Shown one piece after another: positions 1 through 64,000 of a stretch of DNA of 64,000 bases (positions are counted from its first letter, which is position 1; each line of letters starts with the position of its first letter). Position numbers and translations under genes: made by a program. Where the stretch lies: contig NC_135804.1 in NCBI RefSeq assembly GCF_964213995.1, forward strand, positions 113,522,001 through 113,586,000, read 5' to 3'. Origin of the DNA: Mustelus asterias. Its lineage: Eukaryota. The notes beneath the pieces were generated by a model that saw only the letters and a list, made by a program, of their open reading frames with translations, was not told where the DNA came from and searched no databases.

Positions 1-134
1 TAGCTGGAAGCAATCTGTATATGTATTTTGGGATATTAGAAGTAAGCTGTAGCTTTTAGTGAGTTTGTGTTTTGGTATAAGCAAGGTTGAAAACATTAGT
101 TAGATTCATGTTAAACAAAGGGGCTTGCATGCAT

Positions 135-375
135 AAAAGCAAATTACTGCAAATGCTGGAATCTAAAACCAAAAGAGAAAATGCTGGAAAATCTCAGCAG
201 GTCTGGCAGCATCTGGAAGGAGAGAAATGAGCTGATGTTGAGAGTCCAGATGACCCTTTGTCAAAGCTATGACAAAGCTTTGACAAAGGGTCATCTGGAC
301 TTGAAACATCAGCTCGTTTCTCTCCTTACAGATGCTGCCAATCCTGCTGAGATTTTCCAGCATTTTCTCTCTTTA
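135..375. mobile_element. Short non-coding foldback element with HHR motif (PLE-mobilised type)
   Basis: Inverted arms centred near 269-275; 13-bp TSD ggcttgcatgcat at 122-134 and 376-388. Confidence 0.8.
276..314 (+). ncRNA. Minimal hammerhead ribozyme motif with U3-A8 core
   Basis: AGCU-UUGACAA-A-GGGUC-AUCUG-GACUU-GAAA-CA-UC-AGCU. Confidence 0.55.
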
Positions 376-1129
376 GGCTTGCATGCATGTAGGTTTTGGT
401 TTAATTTCAAACTGTGGCTGCATCGTGATTAGAGAGCTTACAACGTGAAAACAAACAAGTTTTAAAGAAAGACTAGGCTGTTGCTTAGCAACCAAAGGCC
501 CCATAGGTTACAAAGAATTTTTGAGTTTAGTTTTAAGCTGGACCCAGTAGCATTTGGAGCGAGGTAGCTGACAAAGAAGCAGCTCTCACAGAAACGAGAA
601 GCAGTCCAATGGAGTAAGGGGAAGAAGGCAAGTCCCAGAAGCTAATGAACAGATAGTTTTAGAAACCAGTGAATGAAATAAAAGTCCCAAGAAGACCAAA
701 GTCAAAGGAACTAGAAATTGAACAAGATTCTGTTCAATACTGAAGTTAAAGGAAGGGGCAGAAAGAGACTCCCAGTTAAAGACAGAGCTAAAAGGTGCAG
801 ACCTAGAGACATTGGCTAGCGAGAAGATCGATATTGTAAGTAATTCTAAGGTTGGTGACACCTCAATACAGCCTGTGAAGCAGTACTGTCCTGTTGGTGT
901 GATGTGGCTCAGATGCTTGTGGCAAGCCAAGGCAAACAAATACTGAAAGGAGACACTGAAATCCTGGAAGTGGATCATGGTGAAGGCATTTGAGAGAAAC
1001 CATTGTTTGGGAGAAATTTCCAAGTTGTGTCCTTTTGAGAGTGAAGTTTGGAAACACCTGTGTAGAAGTAACAGTTTCAGTGAGACCAGTTGGCTTACAG
1101 TAAGATAAGCATCTTGGGAGGGTGTGGGT

Positions 1130-12110: not shown

Positions 12111-13700
12111 AGACCATAAGACATAGGAGCGGAAGTAAGGCCATTCGGCCCATCGAGTCCACTCCACCATTCAATCATGGTTGATTTCAACTCCATTTAC
12201 CCGCTCTCTCCCCATAGCCCTTAATTCCTCGAGAAATCAAGAATTTATCAATTTCTGTCTTGAAGACGCTCAACGTCTCGGCCTCCACAGCTCTCTGTGG
12301 CAATGAATTCCACAGACCTACCACTCTCTGGCTGAAGAAATTTCTCCTCATCTCTGTTCTAAAGTGACTCCCTTTTATTCTAAGGCTGTGCCCCCGCGTC
12401 CTAGTCTCCCCTGCTAATGGAAACAACTTCCCTACGTCCATCCTATCTAAGCCGTTCATTATCTTGTAAGTTTCTATTAGATCTCCCCTCAACCTCCTAA
12501 ACTCCAATGAATATAATCCCACGATCCTCAGACGTTCATCGTATGTCAGGCCTACCATTCCTGGGATCATCCGTGTGAATCTCCGCTGGACCCGCTCCAG
12601 TGCCAGTATGTCCTTCCTGAGGTGTGGGGCCCAAAATTGCTCACAGTACTCCAAATGGGGCCTAACCAGTGCTTTATAAAGCCTCAGAAGTACATCCCTG
12701 CTTTTGTATTCCAAGCCTCTTGAGATAAATGACAACATTACATTTGCTTTCTTAATTACGGACTCAACCTGCAAGTTTACCTTTAGAGAATCCTGGACTA
12801 GGACTCCCAAGTCCCTTTGCATTTTAGCATTATGAATTTTGTCACCGTTTAGAAAATAGTCCATGCCTCTATTCTTTTTTCCAAAGTGCAAGACCTCGCA
12901 CTTGCCCACGTTGAATTTCATCAGCCACTTCTTGGACCACTCTCCTAAACTGTCTAAATCTTTCTGCAGCCTCCCCACCTCCTCAATACTACCTGCCCCT
13001 CCACCTATCTTTGTATCATCGGCAAACTTGGCCAGAATGCCCCCAGTCCCGTCATCTAGATCGTTAATATATAAAGAGAACAGCTGTGGCCCCAACACTG
13101 AACCCTGCGGGACACCACTTGTCACCGGTTGCCATTCTGAGAAAGAACCTTTTATCCCAACTCTCTGCCTTCTGTCTGACAGCCAATCGTCAATCCATGT
13201 TAGTACCTTGCCTCGAATACCATGGGCCCTTATTTTACTCAGCAGTCTCCCGTGAGGCACCTTGTCAAAGGCCTTTTGGAAGTCAAGATAGATAACATCC
13301 ATTGGCTCTCTTTGGTCTAACCTATTTGTTATCTCTTCAAAGAACTCTAACAGGTTTGTCGGGCACGACCTCCCCTTACTAAATCCATGCTGACTTGTCC
13401 TAATCCGACCCTGCACTTCCAAGAATTTAGAAATCTCATCCTTAACGATGGATTCTAGAATTTTGCCAACAACTGAGGTTAGGCTAATTGGCCTATAATT
13501 TTCCATCTTTTTTCTTGTTCCCTTCTTGAACAGTGGGGTTACAACAGCGATTTTCCAATCCTCTGGGACTTTCCCTGACTCCAGTGACTTTTGAAAGATC
13601 ATAACTAACGCCTCCACTATTTCTTCAGCTATCTCCTTTAGAACTCTAGGATGTAGCCCATCTGGGCCCGGAGATTTATCAATTTTCAGACCTTTTAGTT
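12111..13700 (-). mobile_element. Young 5'-truncated CR1 (HER1-like) LINE with an uninterrupted RT frame (12187-13617)
   Basis: NYRPISLTS, YLDFQKAFD, GVPQGSVLGP, KFADD motifs; short-repeat 3' tail; frame runs to the truncation point. Confidence 0.95.
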
Positions 13701-21287: not shown

Positions 21288-22658
21288 AACTCCTCCTGCT
21301 GTGCCCTTGAACTTTCTACCGACTTCAAGAGAAGCAGAATGGGTTGGACTACTTGAGAACAGATCAAGAGCAGGATTACCTGAGAAATGATACGTCAGCA
21401 AAGTTTGAAGTACTAATTTCTTGCGTGGCCAAGCAGTCCCTGCATTCAGCTAAAGACTCATCTTAATTTCCACCTTTAAATAAAATCAATGCTTCATAAT
21501 TCAATTAACCAATGAAAATCTGGAACAAACTGCTAGTGTCATTAATAATAATCATGGGCTAGATTTTATGCTCTCCTGCCAGCGGATCTGAAGATGCCAG
21601 GTAGGGGGAGCGGGTACCTGAAATTTTATCCAGGTGGGGTGCTGGGGAAGAGGTCAGGTGACATGCCTGACCTTGAGCCTATTGTGGCCTTTAAGTGGCC
21701 ATTTACTGGCCTCTGAAGGATCGCAACCTGCTGCCATCCTTGTTTTACCTATGGTGGGCGAAGGCCCATGCAGAGCAGGAAGATGGGCATGTTAAACTGT
21801 AGTGATAGGTGTCGAGTGGTGGGTGGGAATGTCCCACTGAGGGCTCCCTAGACCTATCCGAGGTATTCCCTTTTCCTCCCCTCCTGGCCAGATTATTACT
21901 GTTGAGGCTATGCTTATTATTCGGGAGCCTAAAGCCTCAAACTCTCTTAGCAGATCATTTAGAGTTCGGTGTTGTCCATTCCATAGAACCATAGAACCGT
22001 AGAAAATTACAGCTCAGAAACAGGCCTTTTGGCCCTTCTTGTCTATGCCGAACCATTTTATGCCTAGTCCCACTGACCTGCACTTGGACCATATCCCTCC
22101 ACACCCCTCTCATCCATGAACCCGTCCAAGTTTTTCTTAAATGTTAAAAGTGACCCCGCATTTACCACTTTATCCGGCAGCTCATTCCACACTCCCACCA
22201 CTCTCTGCGTGAAGAAGCCCCCCCTAATATTCCCTGTAAACTTTTCTTCTTTCACCCTTAACCCATGCCCTCTGGTTTTTTTCTCCCCTAGCCTCAGCGG
22301 AAAAAGCCTGCTTGCATTCACTCTATCTATACCCATCAAAATCTTATACACCTCTATCAAATCTCCCCTCAATCTTCTACGCTCCAGGGAATAAAGTCCC
22401 AACCTATTCAATCTCTCTCTGTAACTCAGCTTCTCAAGTCCCGGCAACATCCTTGTGAACCTTCTCTGCACTCTTTCAATCTTATTTACATCCTTCCTGT
22501 AACTAGGTGACCAAAACTGTACACAATACTCCAAATTCGGCCTCACCAATGCCTTATATAACCTTGATGTGGAGATGCCGGCGTTGGACTGGGGTAAACA
22601 CAGTAAGAAGTTTAACAACACCAGGTTAAAGTCCAACAGGTTTATTTGGTAGCAAAAG

Positions 22659-22704
22659 CCACACAAGCTTTCGGAGCTCTAAGCCCCTTCTTCAGGTGAG
22701 TGGG
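22659..22704 (-). ncRNA. Minimal type I hammerhead ribozyme motif
   Basis: CCACUCAC-CUGAAGA-A-GGGGCU-UAG-AGCUCC-GAAA-GC-UU-GUGUGG. Confidence 0.8.
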
Positions 22705-24091
22705 AATTCTGTTCACAAACAGAGCTTATAAAGACACAGACTCAATTTACATGAATAATGGTTGGAATGCGAATACTTACAACTAATCAAGTCTTTAAGA
22801 AACAAAACAATGTGAATGGAGAGAGCATCAAGACAGGCTAAAAAGATGTGTATTGTCTCCAGACAAGACAGCCAGTGAAACTCTGCAGGTCCACGCAACT
22901 GTGGGAGTTACAAATAGTGTGACATGAACCCAATATCCCGGTTGAGGCAGTCCTCGTGTGTGCGGAACTTGGCTATCAGTTTCTGCTCAGCGACTCTGCG
23001 CTGTCGTGTGTCGCAAAGGCCGCCTTGGAGAACGCTTACCCGAATATCAGAGGCCGAATGCCCGTGACCGCTGAAGTGCTCCCCAACAGGAAGAGAACAG
23101 TCTTGCCTGGTGATTGTCGAGCGGTGTTCATTCATCCGTTGTCGCAGCGTCTGCATAGTTTCCCCAATGTACCATGCCTCGGGACATCCTTTCTTGCAGC
23201 GTATCAGGTAGACAACGTTGGCCGAATTGCAAGAGTATGTACCGTGTACCTGGTGGATGGTGTTCTCACGTGAGATGATGGCATCTGTGTGATGACGGCA
23301 TCTCCTCCGGAGCCTTCAACATGTCATTGATGAAGACGAACATCTCGCCAAGAACATCCCCACACCCCCCTTCTTGCCTTCAAACAACCGCACAACCTCA
23401 AACAGACCATTGTCCGCAGCAAACTACCCAGCCTTCAGGAGAACAGTGACCATGACACCACACAACCCTGCCACAGCAACCTCTGCAAGACGTGCCGGAT
23501 CATCGACACAGATGCCATCATCTCACGTGAGAACACCATCCACCAGGTACACGGTACATACTCTTGCAATTCGGCCAACGTGGTCTACCTGGTACGCTGC
23601 AAGAAAGGATGTCCCGAGGCATGGTACATTGGGGAAACTATGCAGACGCTGCGACAACGGATGAATGAACACCGCTCGACAATCACCAGGCAAGACTGTT
23701 CTCTTCCTGTTGGGGAGCACTTCAGCGGTCACAGGCATTTGGCCTCTGATATTCGGGTAAGCGTTCTCCAAGGCGGCCTTCGCGACACACGACAGCGCAG
23801 AGTCGCTGAGCAGAAACTGATAGCCAAGTTCCGCACACACGAGGACGGCCTCAACCGGGATATTGGGTTCATGTCACACTATTTGTAACTCCCACTGATG
23901 CGTGGACCTGCAGAGTTTCACTGGCTGTCTTGTCTGGAGACAATACACATCTTTTTAGCCTGTCTTGATGCTCTCTCCATTCACATTGTTTTGTTTCTTA
24001 AAGACTTGATTAGTTGTAAGTATTCGCATTCCAACCATTATTCATGTAAATTGAGTCTGTGTCTTTATAAGCTCTGTTTGTGAACAGAATT

Positions 24092-24137
24092 CCCACTCAC
24101 CTGAAGAAGGGGCTTAGAGCTCCGAAAGCTTGTGTGG
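24092..24137 (+). ncRNA. Minimal type I hammerhead ribozyme motif
   Basis: Mirror copy of 22659-22704. Confidence 0.8.
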
Positions 24138-25464
24138 CTTTTGCTACCAAATAAACCTGTTGGACTTTAACCTGGTGTTGTTAAACTTCTTATTATATAA
24201 CCTTACCATAACACTCCAACTTTTATACTCGATACTCCGATTTATAAAGGCCAATGTACCAAAGGCACTCTTTACGACCCTATCCACCTGTGACGTCACT
24301 TTTAGGGAATTCTGTACCTGTATTCCCAGATCCCTCTGTTCAACTGCACTCTTCAGAGTCCTACCATTTACCCTGTACGTTCTTCTTTGGTTTGTCCCTC
24401 CAAAGTGCAATATCTCACACTTGTCCGCGTTAAACTCCATTTGCCATTTTTCAGCCCATTTTTCTAGTTGGTCCAAATCCCTCTGCAAGCTTTGAAAACC
24501 TTCCTCACTGTCCACTACACCTCCAATCTTTGTATCATCAGCAAACTTGCTGATCCAATTTACCACATTATCATCCAGATCATTGATATAGATGACAAAC
24601 AACAATGGACCCAGCACTGATCCCTGCGGCACACCACTAGTCACAGGCCTCCACTCAGAGAAGCAATCCTCCACAACCACTCTCTGGCTTCTTCCATTGC
24701 AGTGTCTTATCCAATTTACTACCTCCCCATGTATACCTAGCGACTGAACCTTCCTAACTAACCTCCCATGAGGGACCTTGTCAAAGGCCTTGCTGAAATC
24801 CAGGTAGACAACATCCACCGCCTTCCCTTCATCCACTTTCCTGGTAACCTCCTCGAAAAACTCTAATAGATTGGTCAAACATGACCTACCACGCACAAAG
24901 CCATGTTGACTCTCCCTAATAAGTCCCTGTCTATCCAAATATTTGTAGATCCTATCCCTTATCACACCTTCCAATAACTTGCCCACCACCGACGTCAAAC
25001 TTACTGGCCGATAATTTCCCGGATTTCTTTTGGAACCTTTTTTAAACGGAACAACATGAGCCACCCTCCAATCATCCGGCACCTCCCCCGTGAATACTGA
25101 CATTTTAAATATGTCTGCCAGGGCCCCTGCAAATTCAACACTAGCTTCCCTCAAGGTCCGTGGGAATACCCTGTCCGGTCCTGGGGATTTATCCACTCTG
25201 ATTTGCCTCAAGACAGCGAGCACCTCCTCCCCTTTAATCTGTAAAGCTTCCATGGCCTCCCTACCAGTTTGCCCTATTTCCGTAGATGGACCACAAGGGG
25301 GTTCTGCCCCTTTCAGTCCAAATTTTTCCTGTCTTTAATCCTGGGATTGGGCAGGCAAGATATAACACTGGAATGCCTAGTTGTGGCTGCAGGGTAGACT
25401 ATCCATCTCGGGGTCCATACAGTCCTCCATCACAACCATATTGCTTTTCACTCCTCCCACCTGA

Positions 25465-30289: not shown

Positions 30290-31350
30290 AAGGGCAAAGG
30301 TATTTTGATCTTGGAAAGCATTTGATAAGGCAAGAGGTTAGTATATAAAAATTGGGTTGGATGGGGTAATATATTTGCATGGATTTAGAATTGGTTAATG
30401 GAGAGGATATAGAGAATTGAAACAAAGGAGACGTTTTCAGGTTGACAAGTTGTAACCCACAAGGGGTCTCAGTATATACAATCTACAGTAATGAATTAGA
30501 GGAGCCTGAGCAAATCATTTCCATGTTTGTTAACAGAACAAAAAGGGGTGGAAAATTAAGTGGATAGGAGAATGCAAAGAGGTCATGGAGGGATAATAGA
30601 ACTGTTCTGGTGAAACATGAACTCGGTTTTTCCTCTTGCCCTAGATGTTACTTGATCAGCTGAGTATTTCCAACATTTTCTATTTTCCTTTCAGATTTTC
30701 AGCATCTGCAGTATTTTTATTTTGTTGCAAGAGGAATATATTCAGGCTGTGGGAGTGAGCAAGATGATGGAGTACAAAATGGCAAAGTGTGGAGTTATTT
30801 GCTTTGGTAGGGGGAAAATAAAGTATATTTTTGAAGGGAGAATGGAAAATGTAAATATACTTTCTAATGATGGGAGACTGGGAAATATTTGTATTCAGGG
30901 GGATCTGTGTGCCCTTGTACATGGATCTCAGAAAGTGAATGTGCAATACAACAAGCAATTAGGAAGGCAAACGTCATGTTAGCTTTTGTTACAAAGTAAT
31001 TAGAGAATAAGATTAAGAAAGTTTGATCACACTTGTACAGGGCATTGGTGAGGCCACACTTCAGGTACTGATTTCCTCAGCAAAGGGAGGATATTACTAT
31101 CCCAGAGGGATTTCAATGAAGGTTCACTAGACTGGTTGCTGGGATGAGGGGATTGTCCAATGAGGAGAGATTGAGTAAAGTAGGTCCATATTCCCTGGAG
31201 TTTAGAAGAATGAGAGTTGATTGAATTGAACATATAAAATTCTTCAAGGGCTTTACAGGGTGGATACTGAGATAATGTTTCCCCCGGTTGGGAAATCTAG
31301 AATACAGGGTATAACATCAGCATAAACTGGCTAGTCATTTAGACTGGAGG
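30290..31350 (+). mobile_element. Old CR1 remnant containing a copy of the 135-375 family (about 30600-30725)
   Basis: Degenerate KAFDK, KCGVICFG, LYRALVRPH motifs. Confidence 0.65.
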
Positions 31351-44131: not shown

Positions 44132-44258
44132 ATACACTGCAGATGCCAGAATCTGAAACAAAAGCAGAAAATGCTGGAAAATCTCAGCAGGTCTGGCAGC
44201 ATTTGTGGAGAGAGAATAGAGCTAACTTTTTGAGTCTGGATGACCCTTTGAAGGGTCT
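44132..44258 (-). mobile_element. Copy of the 135-375 family with a tiny foldback
   Basis: gaccctttgaagggtc at the end; flanks aacataaaca/aatataaaca. Confidence 0.65.
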
Positions 44259-52370: not shown

Positions 52371-53006
52371 ATGGCAGCAAAAGAATTATGGCATTGATAG
52401 TCCAAAATTGTTCACACATTCCTCCAATTGGATCCTTAATGAGATCAAAACTGAATAAGAAAATGGGCAATATATGATACTGTTTGGATAATATTTGAGT
52501 ATCTATCTTAGTATAGAGTGGAAAGAGAGCAGTCGGGTTTGAAGCTCAAAACAAAGTGTATTATTTTAAAGACTTAAATGAACATGGATAACAGGCTTCC
52601 AAATTGAAAAAAGCTGTAAAAATGACAAGCTTGTTATACTGGTTTTCCGAGTATTGTTTCACATGATGTGTAATCACGAGGAGACACTGGCTCCTCACAA
52701 TATAATAGAGGGAGGAAGACTAAAAGAGCTTTTTAAAAATGATCAAATGGATAGGCTATTACTTCTTGTTGTATTCATTCATGGGATGCTGGCATCACTG
52801 ACAAAGTCATTATTTAATTTCCATCCCTAATTTCCCTTGAGGAGGTGGTTGTCAGCTGTCGTCTTGAATTATTGCAGTATGTGTAGTGAAGGTACAAGCA
52901 CTGTGCTGTTAGGTAGAGTTCCAGAAGTTTGCCTTGGGACAATAAAGGCAGCAAGAAATCTCACAACACCAGGTTAAAGTCCAACAGGTTTATTTGGTAG
53001 CACAAG

Positions 53007-53048
53007 CCACAAGCTTTCAGAGCATTGCTCCTTCATCAGGTGAGTGGG
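53007..53048 (-). ncRNA. Minimal hammerhead ribozyme motif
   Basis: CAC-CUGAUGA-A-GGAGC-AAU-GCUCU-GAAA-GC-UU-GUGG. Confidence 0.75.
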
Positions 53049-53344
53049 AGTTCTGTTCACAAACAGGGCATATAAAAACACAAACTCAATTTACAAGATA
53101 ATGATTGGAATGTGGGTCTTTACAGATAATCAAGTCTTAAAGGTACAGACAATGTGAGTGGAGAGAGGGTTAAGCACAGGTTAAAGAGATGTGTATTGTC
53201 TGCAGCCAGGACAGTTAGTGAGATTTTGCAAGCCCAAGCAAGATGAAGGAGCAGCGCTCTGAAAGCGTGTGGCTTGTGCTACCAAATAAACCTGTTGGAC
53301 TTTAACCTGGTGTTGAGAGACTTCTTACTGTGCATCTCCACATC

Positions 53345-55970
53345 ATGGCAAACTGCCGGCTCCAAGTGGAGAGGATCTCCAAGAAGATTGCGCATATCGA
53401 CACAGACATCAAGTTTCTACAAAGATGCAAGAAAGCAGACAAGATACCGAAAGGAATACAGATCACGAACCCACTCAGGTCAACCCATAACACAGACTAC
53501 GCTGTCGCACCTCTCACACTCCTCAACTACCTCATACACCAGTTCTACAGCGAACACCGCATCCTGGAAACCAAGATAGAGTTCTCAACTTGCGCTCAGG
53601 ACGCAGACCAGCTGTGAAACCCTGCCAAGCAGACGAGACAAAGGAACTACGCCATCTACATGCACATCAAGAACAGGAAACTTGAGAAACTCGGCATCAC
53701 CACCAGCAGCAACCAAGCCCCCCCCAGTACCAGAGTAGGAAACAGTACCACTGCAGGGAAGTCCATTGTTAATTTGTCGGACTACACACTTCAACCAGAT
53801 TAAATCGAAGTTCTCAGCTGAGGGCTCAATTTCTGCCCCACCACCAAAATAGACCCCATCAGTCTCGCAGCGGACAGAGGAATTCATCAGGCGCATGAGG
53901 CTGCGGGAGTTCTTCCACAAACTCCAAGGAGGCCAACAGCGAACACAATGAGACAGCCAATGAACCGGAACAGCCAACAGAGATCCACGGTGCAGCAAAC
54001 AACGAGGAAAGAGTTGAATTGGACTCCTCCGGAAGGCCGCTGCCCTCGACTCGACATGCATGCCCAAGCCGCTAGAAGGTGCATCAATGCCAGACTCATC
54101 AGCCGTACTCAAGACAGCCCTGAATGTCACCCAAGCACAACGCAACGCCATTCGCGCTCTCAAGACCAACCGCAACATTATCAAACCAGCAGACAGAGGG
54201 GCCACCTCATACTGAACAGAATGGATTACTGCAAAGAAGTGTACCGACAATTGAACAATGAGGAACACTACAGACAGTTACCCACAGATCTGACCAAAGA
54301 ACACATCCGTCAACTCAACAGACTGATCAAGACCTTTGATCCGGACCTTCAGAGGACCCTCCATGCTCTCATCCCACGTACTCCCCGCGTTGGAGATCTC
54401 TACTGCCTCCCGAAGATACACAAGGCCAAAACACCCGGCCGTCCCATTGTATCGGGCAATGGGACCCTGTGCGAGAACCTCTCCGGCTATGTCGAGGGCA
54501 TCCTGAAACCCATTGTACAAAGAACCCCCAGCTTTTGTCGCGACACTCCGGACTTCCTACAGAAACTCAGCACACATGGAGCAGTTGAACCAGGAGCACT
54601 CCTCGTCACAATGGATGTCTCGGCACTCTACGCCAGCATCCCCCACGACGATGGCATTGCCGCAACTGCCTCAGTACTCAACACCGACAACTGCCAATCT
54701 CCAGATGCAATTTTACAACTCATCCGCTTCATTCTGGACCACAATGTCTTCACCTTCAACAACCAGTTCTTCATCTAGACACACGGGACAGCCATGGGGA
54801 CCAAATTCGCACCTCAATATGCCAACATCTTCATGCACAGGTTCGAAAACAACCTCTTCACCGCACAGGACCTTCAACCAATGCTATACATTAGATACAT
54901 CGATGACATTTTCTTCCTTTGGACTCATGTCGAACAATCACTGAAACAACTATATGATGACATCAACAAGTTCCATCCCACCATCAGACTCACCATGGAC
55001 TACTCTCCGGAATCGGTTGCATTCTTGGACACACGCATCTCCATTAAGGACAGTCACCTCAGCACCTCACTGTACTGCAAGCCCACGGATAACCTCATGA
55101 TGCTCCACTTCTCCAGCTTCCACCCTAAACACGTTAAAGAAGCCATCCCCTACGGACAAGCCCTCCGTATACACAGGATCTGCTCAGATGAGGAGGATCG
55201 CAACAGACAACTCCAGATGCTGAAGGATGCCCTCATAAGAACAGGATATGGAGCTCAACTCATCGATTGACAGTTCAGACGTGCCACAGCAAAAAACCAC
55301 ACCGACCTCCTAAGAAGACAAACACGGGACACGGCGGACAGAGTACCCTTCGTAGTCCAGTACTTCCCCGGAGTGGAGAAGCTACGACATCTTCTCCGAA
55401 GCCTTCAACATGTCATCGATGAAGATGAACATCTTGCCAAGGCCATTCCCACACCCCCCTTTTTGCTTTCAAACAACCGCACAACCTCAAACAGACCATT
55501 GTCCGCAGCAAACTACCCAGCCTTCAGGAGAACAGTGACCACGACACTACACAACCCTGCCACAGTAACCTCTGCAAGACATGCCAGATCATTGACATGG
55601 ATACCATCATCTCACGTGAGAACACCATCCACCAGGTACACGGTACATACTCTTGCAACTCGGTCAACGTTGTCTACCTGATACGCTGCAGGAAAGGATG
55701 TCCTAAGGCATGGTACATTGGGGAGACCATGCAGACGCTACGACAACGGATGAATGAACACCGCTTGACAATCACCAGGCAGGAATGTTCTCTTCCTGTT
55801 GGGGAACACTTCAGCAGTCACGGCCATTCAGCCTCTGATCGTCGGGTAAACGTTCTCCAAGGCGGCCTTCACGACAACGCAGAATCGCTGAGCAAAAACT
55901 GATAACCAAGTTCCGCACACATGATGTTGGCCTCAACTGGGATCTTGGGTTCATGTCACATTATTTGTAA
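53345..55970 (+). pseudogene. Penelope RT plus GIY-YIG endonuclease ORF, disrupted
   Basis: LPKIHK, PGRPIVS, TMDVSALY, GTAMG, RYIDD, Cys-rich linker CHSNLCKTC, VVYLIRC..WYIGET; several stops and frameshifts. Confidence 0.92.
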
Positions 55971-56173
55971 CCCCCACAACTTGCCTGGACTTGCATAATC
56001 TCACTAACTGTCCTGGCTGGAGACAATACACATCTCTTCGACCTGTGCTTAACCCTCTCTCCACTCTCATTGTCTGTACCTTTAAGACTTGATTACCTGT
56101 AAAGACTCGTATTCCAACCATTATCTTGTAAATTGAGTTTGTGTCTTTATATGCCCTGTTTGTGAACTGAAAT

Positions 56174-56214
56174 CCCACTCACCTGATGAAGGAGCAGTGC
56201 TCTGAAAGCTTGTA
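56174..56214 (+). ncRNA. Minimal hammerhead ribozyme motif (stem I weakened)
   Basis: CAC-CUGAUGA-A-GGAGC-AGU-GCUCU-GAAA-GC-UU-GUA. Confidence 0.65.
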
Positions 56215-59200
56215 CTGCCAAATAAACCTGTTGGACTTTAACCTGGTGTTGTGAGACTTCTTACTGTGTTTACCCCAGTCCAACGCTGGCATCTCCACAT
56301 CATGATAATAAAGGAACAGCAATATGTTCCCAAGTCAAAATTGTTGTCGATTTGGAGGGTAACCAGCTAGTGCCCGGCGTTCTCATGCACCTGCTGCCCT
56401 TGTCCTTCTAGGTTGCAGAGTTCATGGGTTTAGGATGTACTATGGAAGGAATCTTGGCAAGTTGTTGCTGTGTTTCTGGTAAATAGTACAAACTGCACCA
56501 TGGTGCACAGAGTAAATGCAAAAGATGGTGGATGGGGTGCTGATCAAATGATTGCTTTGCCCTGGATGGCATTGGGTTTTCTCAGTAATTGGGGATGCAC
56601 TCATCCACTCAAGTGGACAATATTCCATCATACCCTTCTCGTGTGCTATGAAGGATTGTGGAAAAGCACTGGGGACATAGAATGCGGATCGCTTGTGCCA
56701 AAATCCCAGACTCTGATCTGCTCTTGAGGTCACAATACCTATATAGCTAGTCTGGAAAAGTTTCTGGTTAATGGTGACACCCTCTCAGAGTGGGGGATTT
56801 GATTATAGCAATGTTGTTGGATATCCAGGAGGGTGATGACACTCCCTCTTGTTGGAATGGCTATTGCCTGGTAAGTGATACATAATTTGTGCCACACATC
56901 AGCTCTTGCCAAGTGTGCATACATTACTGCAATGCATCATTACCCAATATATTTGTCAGCTCGAAAGAACTATCAGCGAAATCAGAAGGGGACAGCAACA
57001 AGTGGAACAAATCTAAATGAAAGAGTCCAAACTGCCCAGGGTAAGATGTAAAAGTACATCTGACCTCTGAAGTTTGATACAGTGGAAATCAAACTGGCAC
57101 GAAAGGCAGGCACTGTTGATATCACTGAAAAAAAAATTCAGATGCAATACAGGATAATAATAGGAATATAGTATTCATTAGCCTAAAACAGACCTTGCCT
57201 ACAATTTTACTTGACTTGCACAAACTTACAAATGCTGGTTAAATTCGCTGTGCCTTTTGTGTTCTTTTTAATAGGCAAAATAAGATTTCACTAAAATGTC
57301 CAACTATCAACTTATTCCATAAAGGTTTCTTACTGTATTGAACTGTTAATTTTCCCAATTCATATTATTTACTATCCACCTATTTCAGAGATGCCGAAAC
57401 TCCATGTTGTGCAGGTTTTCTACATTAAAGGGTAAACAAAGTGTAAACTAATTTTACAAAATTTTGCAACTTATTTTAAAACATGTGTATTTTGAAGTTA
57501 TTTCATATTTTCCCATCCTTTAACTCTGAAGAATAGTCTACTTGTTGGCCAACAGAACAGATACTCCTGGATCCCCTCTACTCAAATCAAGCTGCAAGAT
57601 CAGTCTGAAATTAATTACCTTCTGATCTTTTCCCTATTCTTGTGGGAAAAACGTTTTTAAAAAGTACTTCAAGATAGATGACACCGACAAGCCTGCATTT
57701 ATTGCCCATCCCGAGTTGTTCTGAGAAGGTAGAACTGGAACCATTATAGTCCTTAGGCACACAGTGTCACTACAATAATATTAGACAGGGTATTCAGGAT
57801 TGATCATTAAGCAAAGGTTCTATATGTGGAAGTTAGGATGATGTGCTATTCAATGAGACTCCCGAGATCTTTCCTGCTTCTGCACCCACCTCTAATATCA
57901 CAGTTCATTGGAGTTCATCATGTAAAACTGCATCAATTTACTGTGCAGTTTAATATATTATTGTAGCAACAAATTGCTGCATCAAGATAAAAGCGACCAA
58001 CAACGTTGGACAGGGAAATATGTCTAAAGGGTTAACTTTTCTCGAGAACTGGAGAAGGAAACAGCCTCTCTCCATGCCACAATGTTCTATGATTCCAAGT
58101 GCAGAGTCTACCACATCCTCCTCAATATAAGGTTAAACAGTATCATTGTGTACAGACACATTTCCAAGTCGGGGCTGGTGTGGAGATAAAAAGTTCAAAT
58201 AATTTGTAGCACAACAGTTACAATTATTACTGATTCTTCTATTTAATCACCTGCTATTTTCCTACAAAAAAGCAAGCAGGCAAGCAGTCTTGCCATCAAC
58301 AGTTTGATCATGGTATAAATTCTCACGTATTCCCAAGTGTGCATGTATGCATAACATGGCTAAAATACAAGATACAATATTTAACCACAATTGCTTTCAA
58401 AGACATCAAGACTTCTCATGACAAGTTTCAATCAGTTCACTTTTGTATTATGTTACCCTTCACCACTAAAAGTATCCATACATATTGCAGAGATTTCCAA
58501 GAAACATACCCAGGGTGAGATAAATGTCCATGAAACATAATTATCGGCATCAGCCACAAGAAACAAAAAACCTCACCAGACTTGTGAATGGTTAAAGTGA
58601 AACGGAGTACATAAATGAACGTAATGCTGTTTATCGTTTTAAAGATTGCACAAGAGGAATTAAGATCCATGTGATACAAGATATGTATATACAGTATGAC
58701 AGACTAATTGTATTATACATTTGAAACTTGCTATCAAATGTTAAAAATAGGATTTCTGAGAATCCGCAGTATTTGGTTTTTGTATCAAAAATGTCATGCA
58801 GTATTGCAGCTCTGAAGTACTTAAAACCATCAAAGGCAAATTTTAACTGCATCATCAAACTGATGAAGCATTCCAGTGATAAATTAGCTTCCCCCAGTTT
58901 CACTCCACCACCACCGCTCCCACCCCCCAAGCTTCAATGACCGTTATAGTGCAGGCATGGAAAATTCCAAACACTATAGCACATTAAATCGTTTTGGCAG
59001 ATATGCTGATTCGCCAAATGAACCTTTCAAAAACAGGTTCTAGAAAGCCTACTTAGCAACCACATGCAGTCTCTTATAGGCAACAGCCTAAATAATAGAT
59101 AAAAATTGCTTAACAGACTTGTATGACAACAGCTTGTCTTCTATTTTCAAGGAGATGTTTATTTTAAATAGATTAAACAGTTCTGGTAAAACACACATGA

Positions 59201-61330: not shown

Positions 61331-63038
61331 ATTGTGTTCAAAATGGCAAATATTCTTGAGTTTTTGAAGAAAGTTGCATCTCAAGTGGTGTTCCTTGGGA
61401 TCCAACTAAGTTCTTCAGGAAAGCCTATTTTTAAGCTCAAAATTTACAGTAAATAACGTGATCAGATAAGAAGTTGGCTCAGGGGTAGGAAGTAATAGTT
61501 AAGTGTTTGAGGAATTATGTTACAAACTGCTGTTTCAAACACTAGTGTTTCCTACTTCTTTAACTGGGATTTTTAAAAAAATGATCAGGTGTTACTAAAC
61601 TAGCAGGGACAGAGAGTCTTGTTGAGCAGGGCTGGAAACTTCTAAATAAGAAATCAGTCAAATGGGCAAAATGACAATAGATGAAATTTGATACTGTCAA
61701 GTGCACCTGGAAGAGAAAATGGATGACTGAAATCCGGATGATCAAGAATGAATGCTTAACATAAATATTGATCTGAAACAGCAAAATAAATAGCATCTAA
61801 AGAGTCATTGGGAGTCATGTCTATACCATGTGGCTTTCTGGTCAGAATACCTTTAGCATTGTGTCCAGTTATAATCACTGAGTAAAAGAAGTAATTCAAT
61901 CCTTTGGTCAATCACAAGACTAGTCCTGAGCATTTCCCTAACAGGAGACTGGATAAACTTGACCTTTAAAACCATGAAAGGTGAATGAAAGAAGTGAAGG
62001 GTCTACAGAGAACCAATTTAGTAAATGTAAATCCAGAATATTACCTCAAGCTATCACAACTGTTACAGTAGGACAAGATGGCACAGGTATAAACTAACAA
62101 AAAAATTTCTTTCCACAGAGTGACGAAAGTACGGAGTCAATTTTCACATAGGGGAATGGAGGTAAATACCCTGAAAAAAAAAGATTTGGATGCACGAATA
62201 GAGGACAACAAGACACTTCCGCTAGGTGAGCCTTCTGCATCTGTATGCGCCTTGAAGTAGCCTGGGGATATGTGGAAAAGATTTACGTGAAAGCGTCATA
62301 CACAGTACTGAAGATGTATACATGATAAGTATCTTCTGGCAAACATTTCCATACACCTGTTATTCAAAATGTACCCTCCCATATGTGGCGCAGAAAATGT
62401 TGCAACCATTTGCTATTCAGCAGAAAATGAAAGTTATGATAGTATTTCAAACAGGAACAAATATTTCAACATTATGACATGAAATACATTGGAACATTGT
62501 TCAAGAATAAAGATGTTGGGGGGGATTGAGGGGTTTTGATAGAGCAACTAAGAAAAAGGATTTGGAACCAGAGGGGACAGATTTAGAAAAATTAGCAAAA
62601 GAAAAACCTGGTGAAAAAGGGATATTTATTTTAAACATGAGTTATGATTTGGAATGGACTGCCTGAAAGTGTGGCAGAAGTAGATTCAATAGTAACTTTC
62701 AAAATGGATTTGGATATATTCCTGGAAAGGAAATATTTACAAGACTATGGAGAAAGAGCAGAGAAACGGAAAGAATTGGACAGCTTTTTCAAAGAGCAGG
62801 TACAGGCAGAACAGGGCAAATTATTTGATGATGAAAGGTTAAATCGAAGAAGTTTACATTTAGATAGTGCTGGTCGTGACCTCAAGATGTCCCAAAATGA
62901 TTTCCAGCTAAGTATTTTAGAAGCACAGTCATTGTGTAGGAAGCACAGCAGCCCATTTTGCATGCAGTGAAGTTCCCACATGCAACATGATGATGACCAA
63001 ATCATCTGTTTAATGATGTTGGCTGAGGGATAAATATT

Positions 63039-63640
63039 GTAAGAAGTTTAACAACACCAGGTTAAAGTCCAACAGGTTTATTTGGTAGCAAAAGCCACAC
63101 AAGCTTTCGGAGCTGCAAGCCCCTTCTTCAGGTGAGTGGGAATTCTGTTCACAAACAGAGCATATAAAGACACAACCTCAATTTACACGAATAATGGTTG
63201 GAATGCGAATACTTACAACTAATCAAGTCTTTAAGAAACAAAACAATGTGAGTGGAGAGAGCATCAAGACAGGCTAAAAAGATGTGTATTGTCTCCAGAC
63301 AAGACAGCCAGTGAAACTCTGTGGGGGTTACAAATAGTGTGCCATGAACCCAATATCCCGGTTGAGGCCGTCCTCGTGTGTGCGGAACTTGGCTATCAGT
63401 TTCTGCTCAGCGACTCTGCGCCGTCGTGTGTCGCGAAGGCCGCCTTGGAGAACGCTTACCCGAATATCAGAGGCCGAATGCCCGTGACCGCTGAAGTGCT
63501 CCCCAACAGGAAGAGAACAGTCTTGCCTGGTGATTGTCGAGCGGTGTTCATTCATCCGTTGTCGCAGCGTCTGCATAGTTTCCCCAATGTACCATGCCTC
63601 GGGACATCCTTTCTTGCAGCGTATCAGGTAGACAACGTTG
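63039..63640 (-). mobile_element. Penelope 3' fragment (GIY-YIG plus pLTR) inserted in a Deu-SINE
   Basis: Nearly identical to 22603-23220; followed by an unrelated GC-rich repeat running to the window end. Confidence 0.92.
63095..63140 (-). ncRNA. Minimal type I hammerhead ribozyme motif
   Basis: CCACUCAC-CUGAAGA-A-GGGGCU-UGC-AGCUCC-GAAA-GC-UU-GUGUGG. Confidence 0.8.
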
Positions 63641-64000
63641 TGGTGGAGAACGGGTCCACTGCCACTCTGCCCGAGATCGGTGGGAGGGGGGGGATGGGGG
63701 TGGTGGATAAGGGGGTCAGTAATGTTGTGGGGGTGGGGCAATGTCTGTGTGGGCCAGGGGGAGATATTATCTGGCCCGGGAGGGATGTGGTAGGGGAGCA
63801 GCATTCTATCATTTCTTGTCCCGTGCACGCGCAGTTGGAGGTGCCGATCAGAGCTGCAGGGTTTCTGGCTGTTAAGACCCACCCACAGGCTGCTGTAGCA
63901 CGATTCGGATTCATTGATATTTTTGCAGGAAGAGTGTATATGGGGGCGCCTGAGAAAGGGTCTAAAAGTCGGATCTGAAACACTCCCAGTTTCAAGTCCG

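Follow-up and report, generated by a model that had tools for sequence, protein, structure and literature searches.

The palindrome at positions 133-375 of the window, the whole stretch of DNA analysed (64,000 nt of NC_135804.1, forward strand, positions 113,522,001 to 113,586,000), is a decayed head-to-head stub of a protein-coding Penelope-type element. Comparison with its relatives in the 3.68 Gb genome places it among the decayed head-to-head 5'-end copies of a Penelope-like element (PLE) that carries a U3-A8 hammerhead and encodes a reverse transcriptase (RT) and a GIY-YIG endonuclease (EN), the arms being likely derived from two mostly uncleaved RNAs. We assign this reading a probability of about 0.7.

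Layout and state of the window copy

Arm numbering sets the A of the first AGCT at 5, N3 at 9, N8 at 14 and the family end at 140; cleavage would fall after 39. The order in each arm is stem I AGCT, core TTGACAA, one extra A, stem II, GAAA box, N17 and AGCT. The window copy comprises the following features.

122-134, plus strand: left target-site duplication, 11-13 bp, with 133-134 common to the element end
133-268, minus strand: long arm, transcript positions 5-140, from stem I to the distal end, with a tail of about 35 nt at 133-168
230-268, minus strand: left minimal hammerhead, stem I 268-265 / 233-230, U3 at 264, A8 at 259, C17 at 234
256-252 / 246-242, minus strand: stem II of the left hammerhead, GAAA box at 241-238 destroyed, G16.2 lost
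269-275, no strand: junction insert of 7 nt that looks like a partial extra copy of the core
276-373, plus strand: short arm, transcript positions 5-102, without a tail
276-314, plus strand: right minimal hammerhead, stem I 276-279 / 311-314, U3 at 280, A8 at 285, C17 at 310
288-292 / 298-302, plus strand: stem II of the right hammerhead, C11.1 changed to U, GAAA intact at 303-306, G16.2 lost at 308
376-388, plus strand: right target-site duplication, direct repeat of the left one

The inverted arms predicted by the sequence-only reading were recovered (171-271 and 273-373, 101 nt, 91% complementary), as was the UUGACAA core in both of them. The palindrome is flanked by 13-bp direct repeats at 122-134 and 376-388, which had been taken for a 13-bp target-site duplication. 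The repeat is real; since 133-134 double as the usual family end in most of 30 copies, the element spans 133-375 and the true duplication is 11-13 bp. Stem II, earlier given as GGGUC/GACUU, has this form in the right arm, but the left arm carries the GACUC of the family. The GAAA box is indeed intact in the right arm only. An intact hammerhead core is absent from this copy: the GAAA box is missing on the left, position 11.1 is U on the right, and both arms have lost G16.2 (ACGU to ACAU), a loss that the sequence-only reading had overlooked. Loss of G16.2 breaks the palindrome needed for dimer stem III, so that neither window ribozyme is intact; judged from these letters, the left hammerhead is predicted to be inactive and the right one to be impaired.

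The U3-A8 state turns the core (arm positions 7-17) into a near-palindrome with the possibility of a short competing hairpin, and this near-palindrome may promote templated insertions where the arms meet. The copy most like the one in the window (L002, G000:C4:88036392-88036667; 93%) is a rare pair in which both arms are long, an exception to the end rule described below.

An Rfam scan of the window gave no hammerhead match. The window monomer folded no better than its shuffles (z +0.3 to -1.1), and the minimum-energy fold of a dimer of a natural copy paired the stems between strands and did not display the active dimer. The putative hammerhead is recognised by its motif anatomy and by family comparison, folding energy giving no support. 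When compared with the minimal type I PLE hammerhead as described in PMC4209133, the family majority letters and the natural copy L046 both have the core boxes, stem I, stem II with G10.1-C11.1, a bulged base after 9 and a palindromic 15.1-16.1.

Several further PLE copies occupy the window. Those at 30643, 35671, 40543, 41036 and 44136, listed earlier as related, are real relatives (74-88% identity) but have no readable U3-A8 core. The one at 44136-44250 is a solo arm with the loop of subfamily B (see below), cut inside the core, and its A8 is best read as CpG decay and not as the U3-A8 state. An old ORF fragment at 12112-12505 shares 73% identity with the U3-A8 parent in its 5' ORF region. 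A second Penelope-like family is represented at 22565-24192 by a young head-to-head insertion. It has arms of 700 bp with 98% identity, fragments of GIY-YIG and, on the minus strand at 22695 and the plus strand at 24101, minimal hammerheads of the canonical C3-G8 type; the tail is confined to the left arm and the target duplication measures about 12 bp. A related element of this second family forms a near full-length RT-EN copy at 52943-56314, which carries an inverted 5' arm, hammerheads of the C3-G8 type on the minus strand at 53039 and the plus strand at 56183, and a tail on the right arm only. A minus-strand 3' fragment of the same family at 63027-63700, with a hammerhead at 63131, is 95% like the copy at 22.6-24.2 kb.

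The parent is an autonomous Penelope-like retrotransposon

Many copies of the family extend upstream of position 5; the additional sequence contains a TATA box, at a distance of about 30 nt, as well as a pLTR and an ORF. Translations of the long copies show Penelope-type RT motifs, a CX4CxxC linker and a GIY-YIG domain. Of three fragments compared with Pfam for RT, L199 matched RVT_1 (E 1.2e-8) and the other two gave no match; GIY-YIG (PF01541) was matched by three of five fragments (E 5e-5), one of them above the curated cut-off. A homologue search returned 45 proteins of 688-1,097 residues, most of them with an annotated RT domain. A CX2-5CxxC linker could be read between RT and EN in L186, L191, L183 and L210; by this linker motif alone, which is common to Nematis too, the element would be of Neptune type. 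Other traits of EN+ PLEs are also present: an RT domain located upstream of the pLTR, pLTRs in direct or inverted orientation, a 30-40 bp tail at one end only, and target duplications of variable length. No intact ORF was found among the approximately 34 long copies examined, all of which carry stops or frameshifts.

The relation of the short arms to this element is given by a full-length copy, L272:2284-6082. It begins exactly at arm position 5, extends beyond 140 into the ORF and ends at position 104 of the 3' pLTR, and its target duplication measures 11 bp. The arm therefore corresponds to the 5' end of the transcript of the autonomous element, each arm comprising the initial 100-136 nt of such an RT + GIY-YIG PLE RNA. 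The proposal of a separate non-coding family mobilised by Penelope thus found no support, since the arms belong to the autonomous element's own transcript. The short arms lack the upstream TATA box and the junction varies from copy to copy, so the palindrome is not propagated as a unit. The other part of the earlier proposal, Penelope-type retrotransposition as opposed to a MITE, holds in view of the RT + GIY-YIG parent, the unequal arms and the variable duplications.

U3-A8 is the fixed state of one subfamily

With the stem II motif held fixed, 11,997 genome sites were found against 22 for the control. Cores at these sites numbered 8,072 for U3A8, 250 for C3A8, 189 for C3G8 and 135 for U3G8 (8,646 in total); U3 and A8, whose co-occurrence had been put forward as a check, are therefore found together as a subfamily state free of the CpG-decay pattern. 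A further sample was drawn with a motif outside the ribozyme (14,929 genome matches, of which the first 100 listed were analysed). Among these listed matches 81 cores were readable: 75 U3A8, 2 C3A8, 2 U3G8, 2 other and no C3G8. In 149 arms of contig C1, A occupies position 8 in 123 of 125 arms and G in none, and T occupies position 3 in 111 of 113, whereas true CpG sites in the same arms are decayed in 11-21% of cases. A8 therefore did not arise by CpG decay after insertion. U3-A8 is a fixed state of this subfamily, termed A.

The C3G8 sites belong elsewhere: of 29 sampled, 27 lie in a sister subfamily, B, two are unassigned and none is in A. Subfamily B is equally large and older, and retains C3-G8. 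Its loop motif has 8,065 genome matches, and in the first 100 of these listed, counted by eye, the core was C3G8 in 72, C3A8 in 19, U3G8 in 6 and U3A8 in 3; all 19 C3A8 cores among these listed matches carry C7, the CpG-decay pattern. Comparison of the majority letters of A with those of B gives 11 differences over 136 arm positions, differences in the loop being masked by the sampling. These include positions 3, 8, 17 and 1.1, and none of the 11 invariant sites. Divergence is 2.3% in A and 4.6% in B; A is thus the younger and U3A8 the derived state. A possible intermediate source lineage with U3G8 was considered and rejected: 29 of 30 sampled U3G8 sites are subfamily A, and the 135 of about 8,400 (1.6%) lie inside the background A-to-G rate of 2.4%.

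A Watson-Crick 3-8 pair is kept in both subfamilies, U3A8 in A and C3G8 in B. The odds ratio of 45 for the 3-8 association mirrors two lineages, not thousands of events. One double change has occurred. Under a uniform model its chance, computed post hoc, is about 0.006, a value that would be higher since G8 was in a CpG; compensation of the 3-8 pair may therefore be taken as a fair inference, not as a result.

Insertion geometry

Pairs were surveyed by taking loci in genome order on contig C1 and joining neighbouring arms within 120 bp. Neighbouring arms are head-to-head in 42 cases, with a single same-strand fragment pair. In 34 of the 42, one arm is long (end at 136-140) and the other short (end at 96-118); none is long-plus-long, one is short-plus-short and in seven an arm is cut elsewhere. 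A target duplication of 9-19 bp was found in 23 of 42 pairs, 16 of 60 solos and 1 of 200 random controls. These survey totals are lower bounds, as a duplicate filter left out copies such as L211, L228, L257 and L264, none of them long-plus-long. The same rule is seen in long copies with an inverted 5' arm (L183, L192, L195, L199, L201 and L209), in the two window copies of the second PLE family, and in 16 of 20 pairs of subfamily B, one pair of the 20 being long-plus-long.

The 5' ends pile up at stem I: among 100 arms, 30 start exactly at position 5, 51 at 5-8 and two at the cleavage site. Together with the TATA box about 30 nt before it, this suggests stem I as the likely transcription start. 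The central junctions vary among copies, and the commonest defined form is a perfect palindrome centred on one AGCT, with 400 exact sites.

Cleavage of the templates

Genome-wide, 400 junctions join two full arms, 56 join a cleavage-site end to a full arm and one joins two cleaved ends. Even if all 56 cleavage-site junctions were cleavage products, cleaved templates would make up at most about 7%. Templates were mostly uncleaved. The cleavage-site junctions were considered as a sign of cleavage in vivo and rejected as such, since a 4-nt microhomology explains them; in eye counts among the matches listed, 19-20 of 100 truncated junctions lie at the cleavage site, and junctions with microhomologies of 2-3 nt account for 4-8 each of the same 100. 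Since the motif occupies the extreme 5' end of the RNA and precedes both priming points, cleavage in the 5' copy would remove the cap and cleavage in the 3' copy would cut off the priming sites. The hammerhead may accordingly have a limiting or regulatory role.

One RNA template or two

The number of templates per insertion can be addressed at arm position 91, a source polymorphism with G in 31 of 137 arms; C90 is decayed in only 4 of 137. Among 69 sampled pairs two are G/G and 13 discordant; genome-wide there are 51 G/G, 160 discordant and 999 A/A pairs. Judged by eye, subfamily B supplies one of the G/G pairs, 11% of the discordant pairs and roughly half of the A/A pairs. One template with 17-30% CpG decay predicts 47-83 discordant pairs in subfamily A, where about 142 are observed. 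Such discordance, two to three times what one template allows, points to two RNAs. Two random templates predict 19-23 G/G pairs in subfamily A, where 50 are observed, and derived changes common to both arms are in mild excess (11 against 4.5 in permutations, p 0.0045). The data lie between the two expectations: many pairs need two different templates, yet their arms are more alike than random ones. This extra likeness is expected if few source loci are active at once, if some pairs come from one template, or after later conversion. By this test, which depends on a single polymorphic site, on a correction for CpG decay and on family shares counted by eye, separate RNAs were likely the templates for the two arms of an insertion.

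Pairs of one A and one B arm are nearly absent: two were found genome-wide with the motif used, neither with a clear duplication. L322, L411 and L412 each have one A-like and one B-like arm without a clear target duplication. Such pairs were set aside as direct proof of two RNAs, the two lacking a clear duplication and L322 having two long ends.

Relation to known systems

As described in PMC8557442, the Neptune and Nematis EN+ PLEs have a single ORF with RT and C-terminal GIY-YIG, a CX2-5CxxC linker, a pLTR with a hammerhead, an inverted 5'-truncated copy at the 5' end and a 30-40 bp tail at one end only, all of which are found here. In contrast to those elements, the commonest product here is a minimal two-arm stub without ORF, and the likeness is one of motifs, not of a tree. 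That inverted pLTRs and the one-sided tail are known PLE traits is also stated there.

The U3-A8 core alone is an already known variant, reported for about 1,300 PLE hammerheads in Schistosoma mansoni (PMC4209133). The Cercyon hammerheads of that species share a short stem I, an unpaired base between 9 and 10.1, G10.1-C11.1, a palindromic 15.2-16.2, the U3-A8 core and opposite-strand motif pairs 100-700 bp apart. They belong to another lineage and have an independent origin; about 8,000 near-uniform sites here compare with about 1,300 heterogeneous ones in the schistosome, and a C3-G8 sister subfamily is present in the same genome here.

Non-LTR retrozymes (bioRxiv 10.64898/2026.07.22.740005) are likewise non-coding, hammerhead-bearing and PLE-derived. 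They are head-to-tail tandem arrays, whereas the copies here end at the promoter and occur singly or in head-to-head pairs. Indeed, head-to-tail hammerhead units are not what the pair survey found, with its 42 head-to-head pairs against one same-strand fragment pair.

For Poseidon of Anolis carolinensis (PAc), PMC11167929 describes a predicted dimer that nicks and extends both strands, two internal RNA start sites for RT that define the tail, and uncleaved RNA as template. The element studied here resembles it in the uncleaved template and would do so in the two starts and in the nicking and extension of both strands. The PAc ORF starts inside the hammerhead, unlike the arm here, which lies upstream of the readable ORF. 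As available, the PAc account assigns no start site to each strand and gives no number of RNAs. Self-priming has been proposed for head-to-head Penelope palindromes (PMC3846280), and the origin of PLE inverted repeats and one-sided tails, and the role of the hammerhead, are posed as open questions in PMC8557442, PMC11167929 and PMC3846280.

In the literature covered, with few subscription papers and no supplements, Schistosoma was the one source of U3-A8 in PLE hammerheads, and a two-RNA mechanism for PLE insertion was nowhere stated. Lunse et al., who reportedly treat dimeric PLE hammerheads, may already list the variant.

A model for insertion and its alternatives

With the parent element, the fixed U3-A8 state, the two arm end points, the pile-up of 5' ends at stem I and the target duplications as observed starting points, the following pathway may be proposed. 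The pLTR promoter, with its TATA box about 30 nt upstream, would start the RNA at stem I. The endonuclease would nick both strands 11-15 bp apart, and each nick would prime reverse transcription inside an RNA, one at a distal (+140) and the other at a proximal point (about +105). Both cDNAs would extend to the RNA 5' end and their ends would join, often by annealing via the self-complementary AGCT of stem I or, alternatively, by an end-joining route that leaves short templated inserts. The U3-A8 change probably preserves pairing between 3 and 8, which would allow the ribozyme of the source element to remain functional as a dimer, but cleavage would not be needed for making these insertions. 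That PLEs insert in general by double target-primed reverse transcription on two RNAs, with a dimeric enzyme and with stem I annealing to join the cDNAs, has in our estimation an even chance of being right.

The main rival keeps the same parent and derives both arms from one template, by fold-back and self-priming or by reading one RNA twice, their differences being left to CpG decay, mutation and gene conversion. The excess concordance of the arms, both in G/G pairs and in derived changes, and the near absence of mixed A/B pairs speak for it, as does the proposal of self-priming in PMC3846280. Discordant pairs nevertheless exceed its expectation even at 30% decay, and discordance is also seen in 15 pairs of perfect-palindrome length, chosen from the discordant list. 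Moreover, the 400 zero-loop AGCT centres would be hard to obtain by fold-back, which alone leaves one fixed long and one fixed short end unexplained. For these reasons we regard a single template as unlikely. A second question concerns the ribozyme itself, which might have drifted neutrally once it had ceased to matter, A8 arising by CpG decay in the source and U3 by chance. G8 did lie in a CpG in sister subfamily B, the templates are mostly uncleaved, U3-A8 makes a competing short hairpin, and only one event is involved. Set against this, the four A/B differences inside the ribozyme (3, 8, 17 and 1.1) are all compatible with its structure and no invariant site was hit, the lack of such hits by itself not being significant (p 0.45), and U3-A8 is a natural, active covariant in other hammerheads (PMC3088659). 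Neutral drift seems to us improbable, if far from negligible.

An independent non-coding family, SINE- or retrozyme-like and moved as a palindromic unit by Penelope proteins, would account for short copies that number in the thousands, keep constant ends and carry duplications. It would not account for central junctions that differ from copy to copy, for arms that follow the autonomous transcript colinearly and pass by degrees into long copies truncated at the 5' end under the same end rule, or for the absence of the TATA box from the short arms, and no tandem monomer arrays were seen at the loci examined; we consider it largely refuted and give it very little credence. A MITE moved by a cut-and-paste DNA transposon has in its favour the palindromic shape only. 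Unequal arms in place of equal terminal inverted repeats, duplications that vary from 9 to 19 bp, solo arms and an RT-EN parent make it barely conceivable, the parent being enough to refute it.

Under the preferred reading, decayed 5'-end copies with arms likely from two RNAs, the main value of the family is a countable insertion geometry. Thousands of minimal insertions, with long and short arms, a start at stem I, joins centred on AGCT and discordant arms, make the question of PLE insertion testable. Thousands of such U3-A8 motifs are missed by C3-G8 descriptors and by Rfam. If true, the double-priming model would explain the head-to-head inverted pLTR together with the one-sided tail, and the U3-A8 and C3-G8 sister subfamilies would provide a natural pair for probing the role of the ribozyme.
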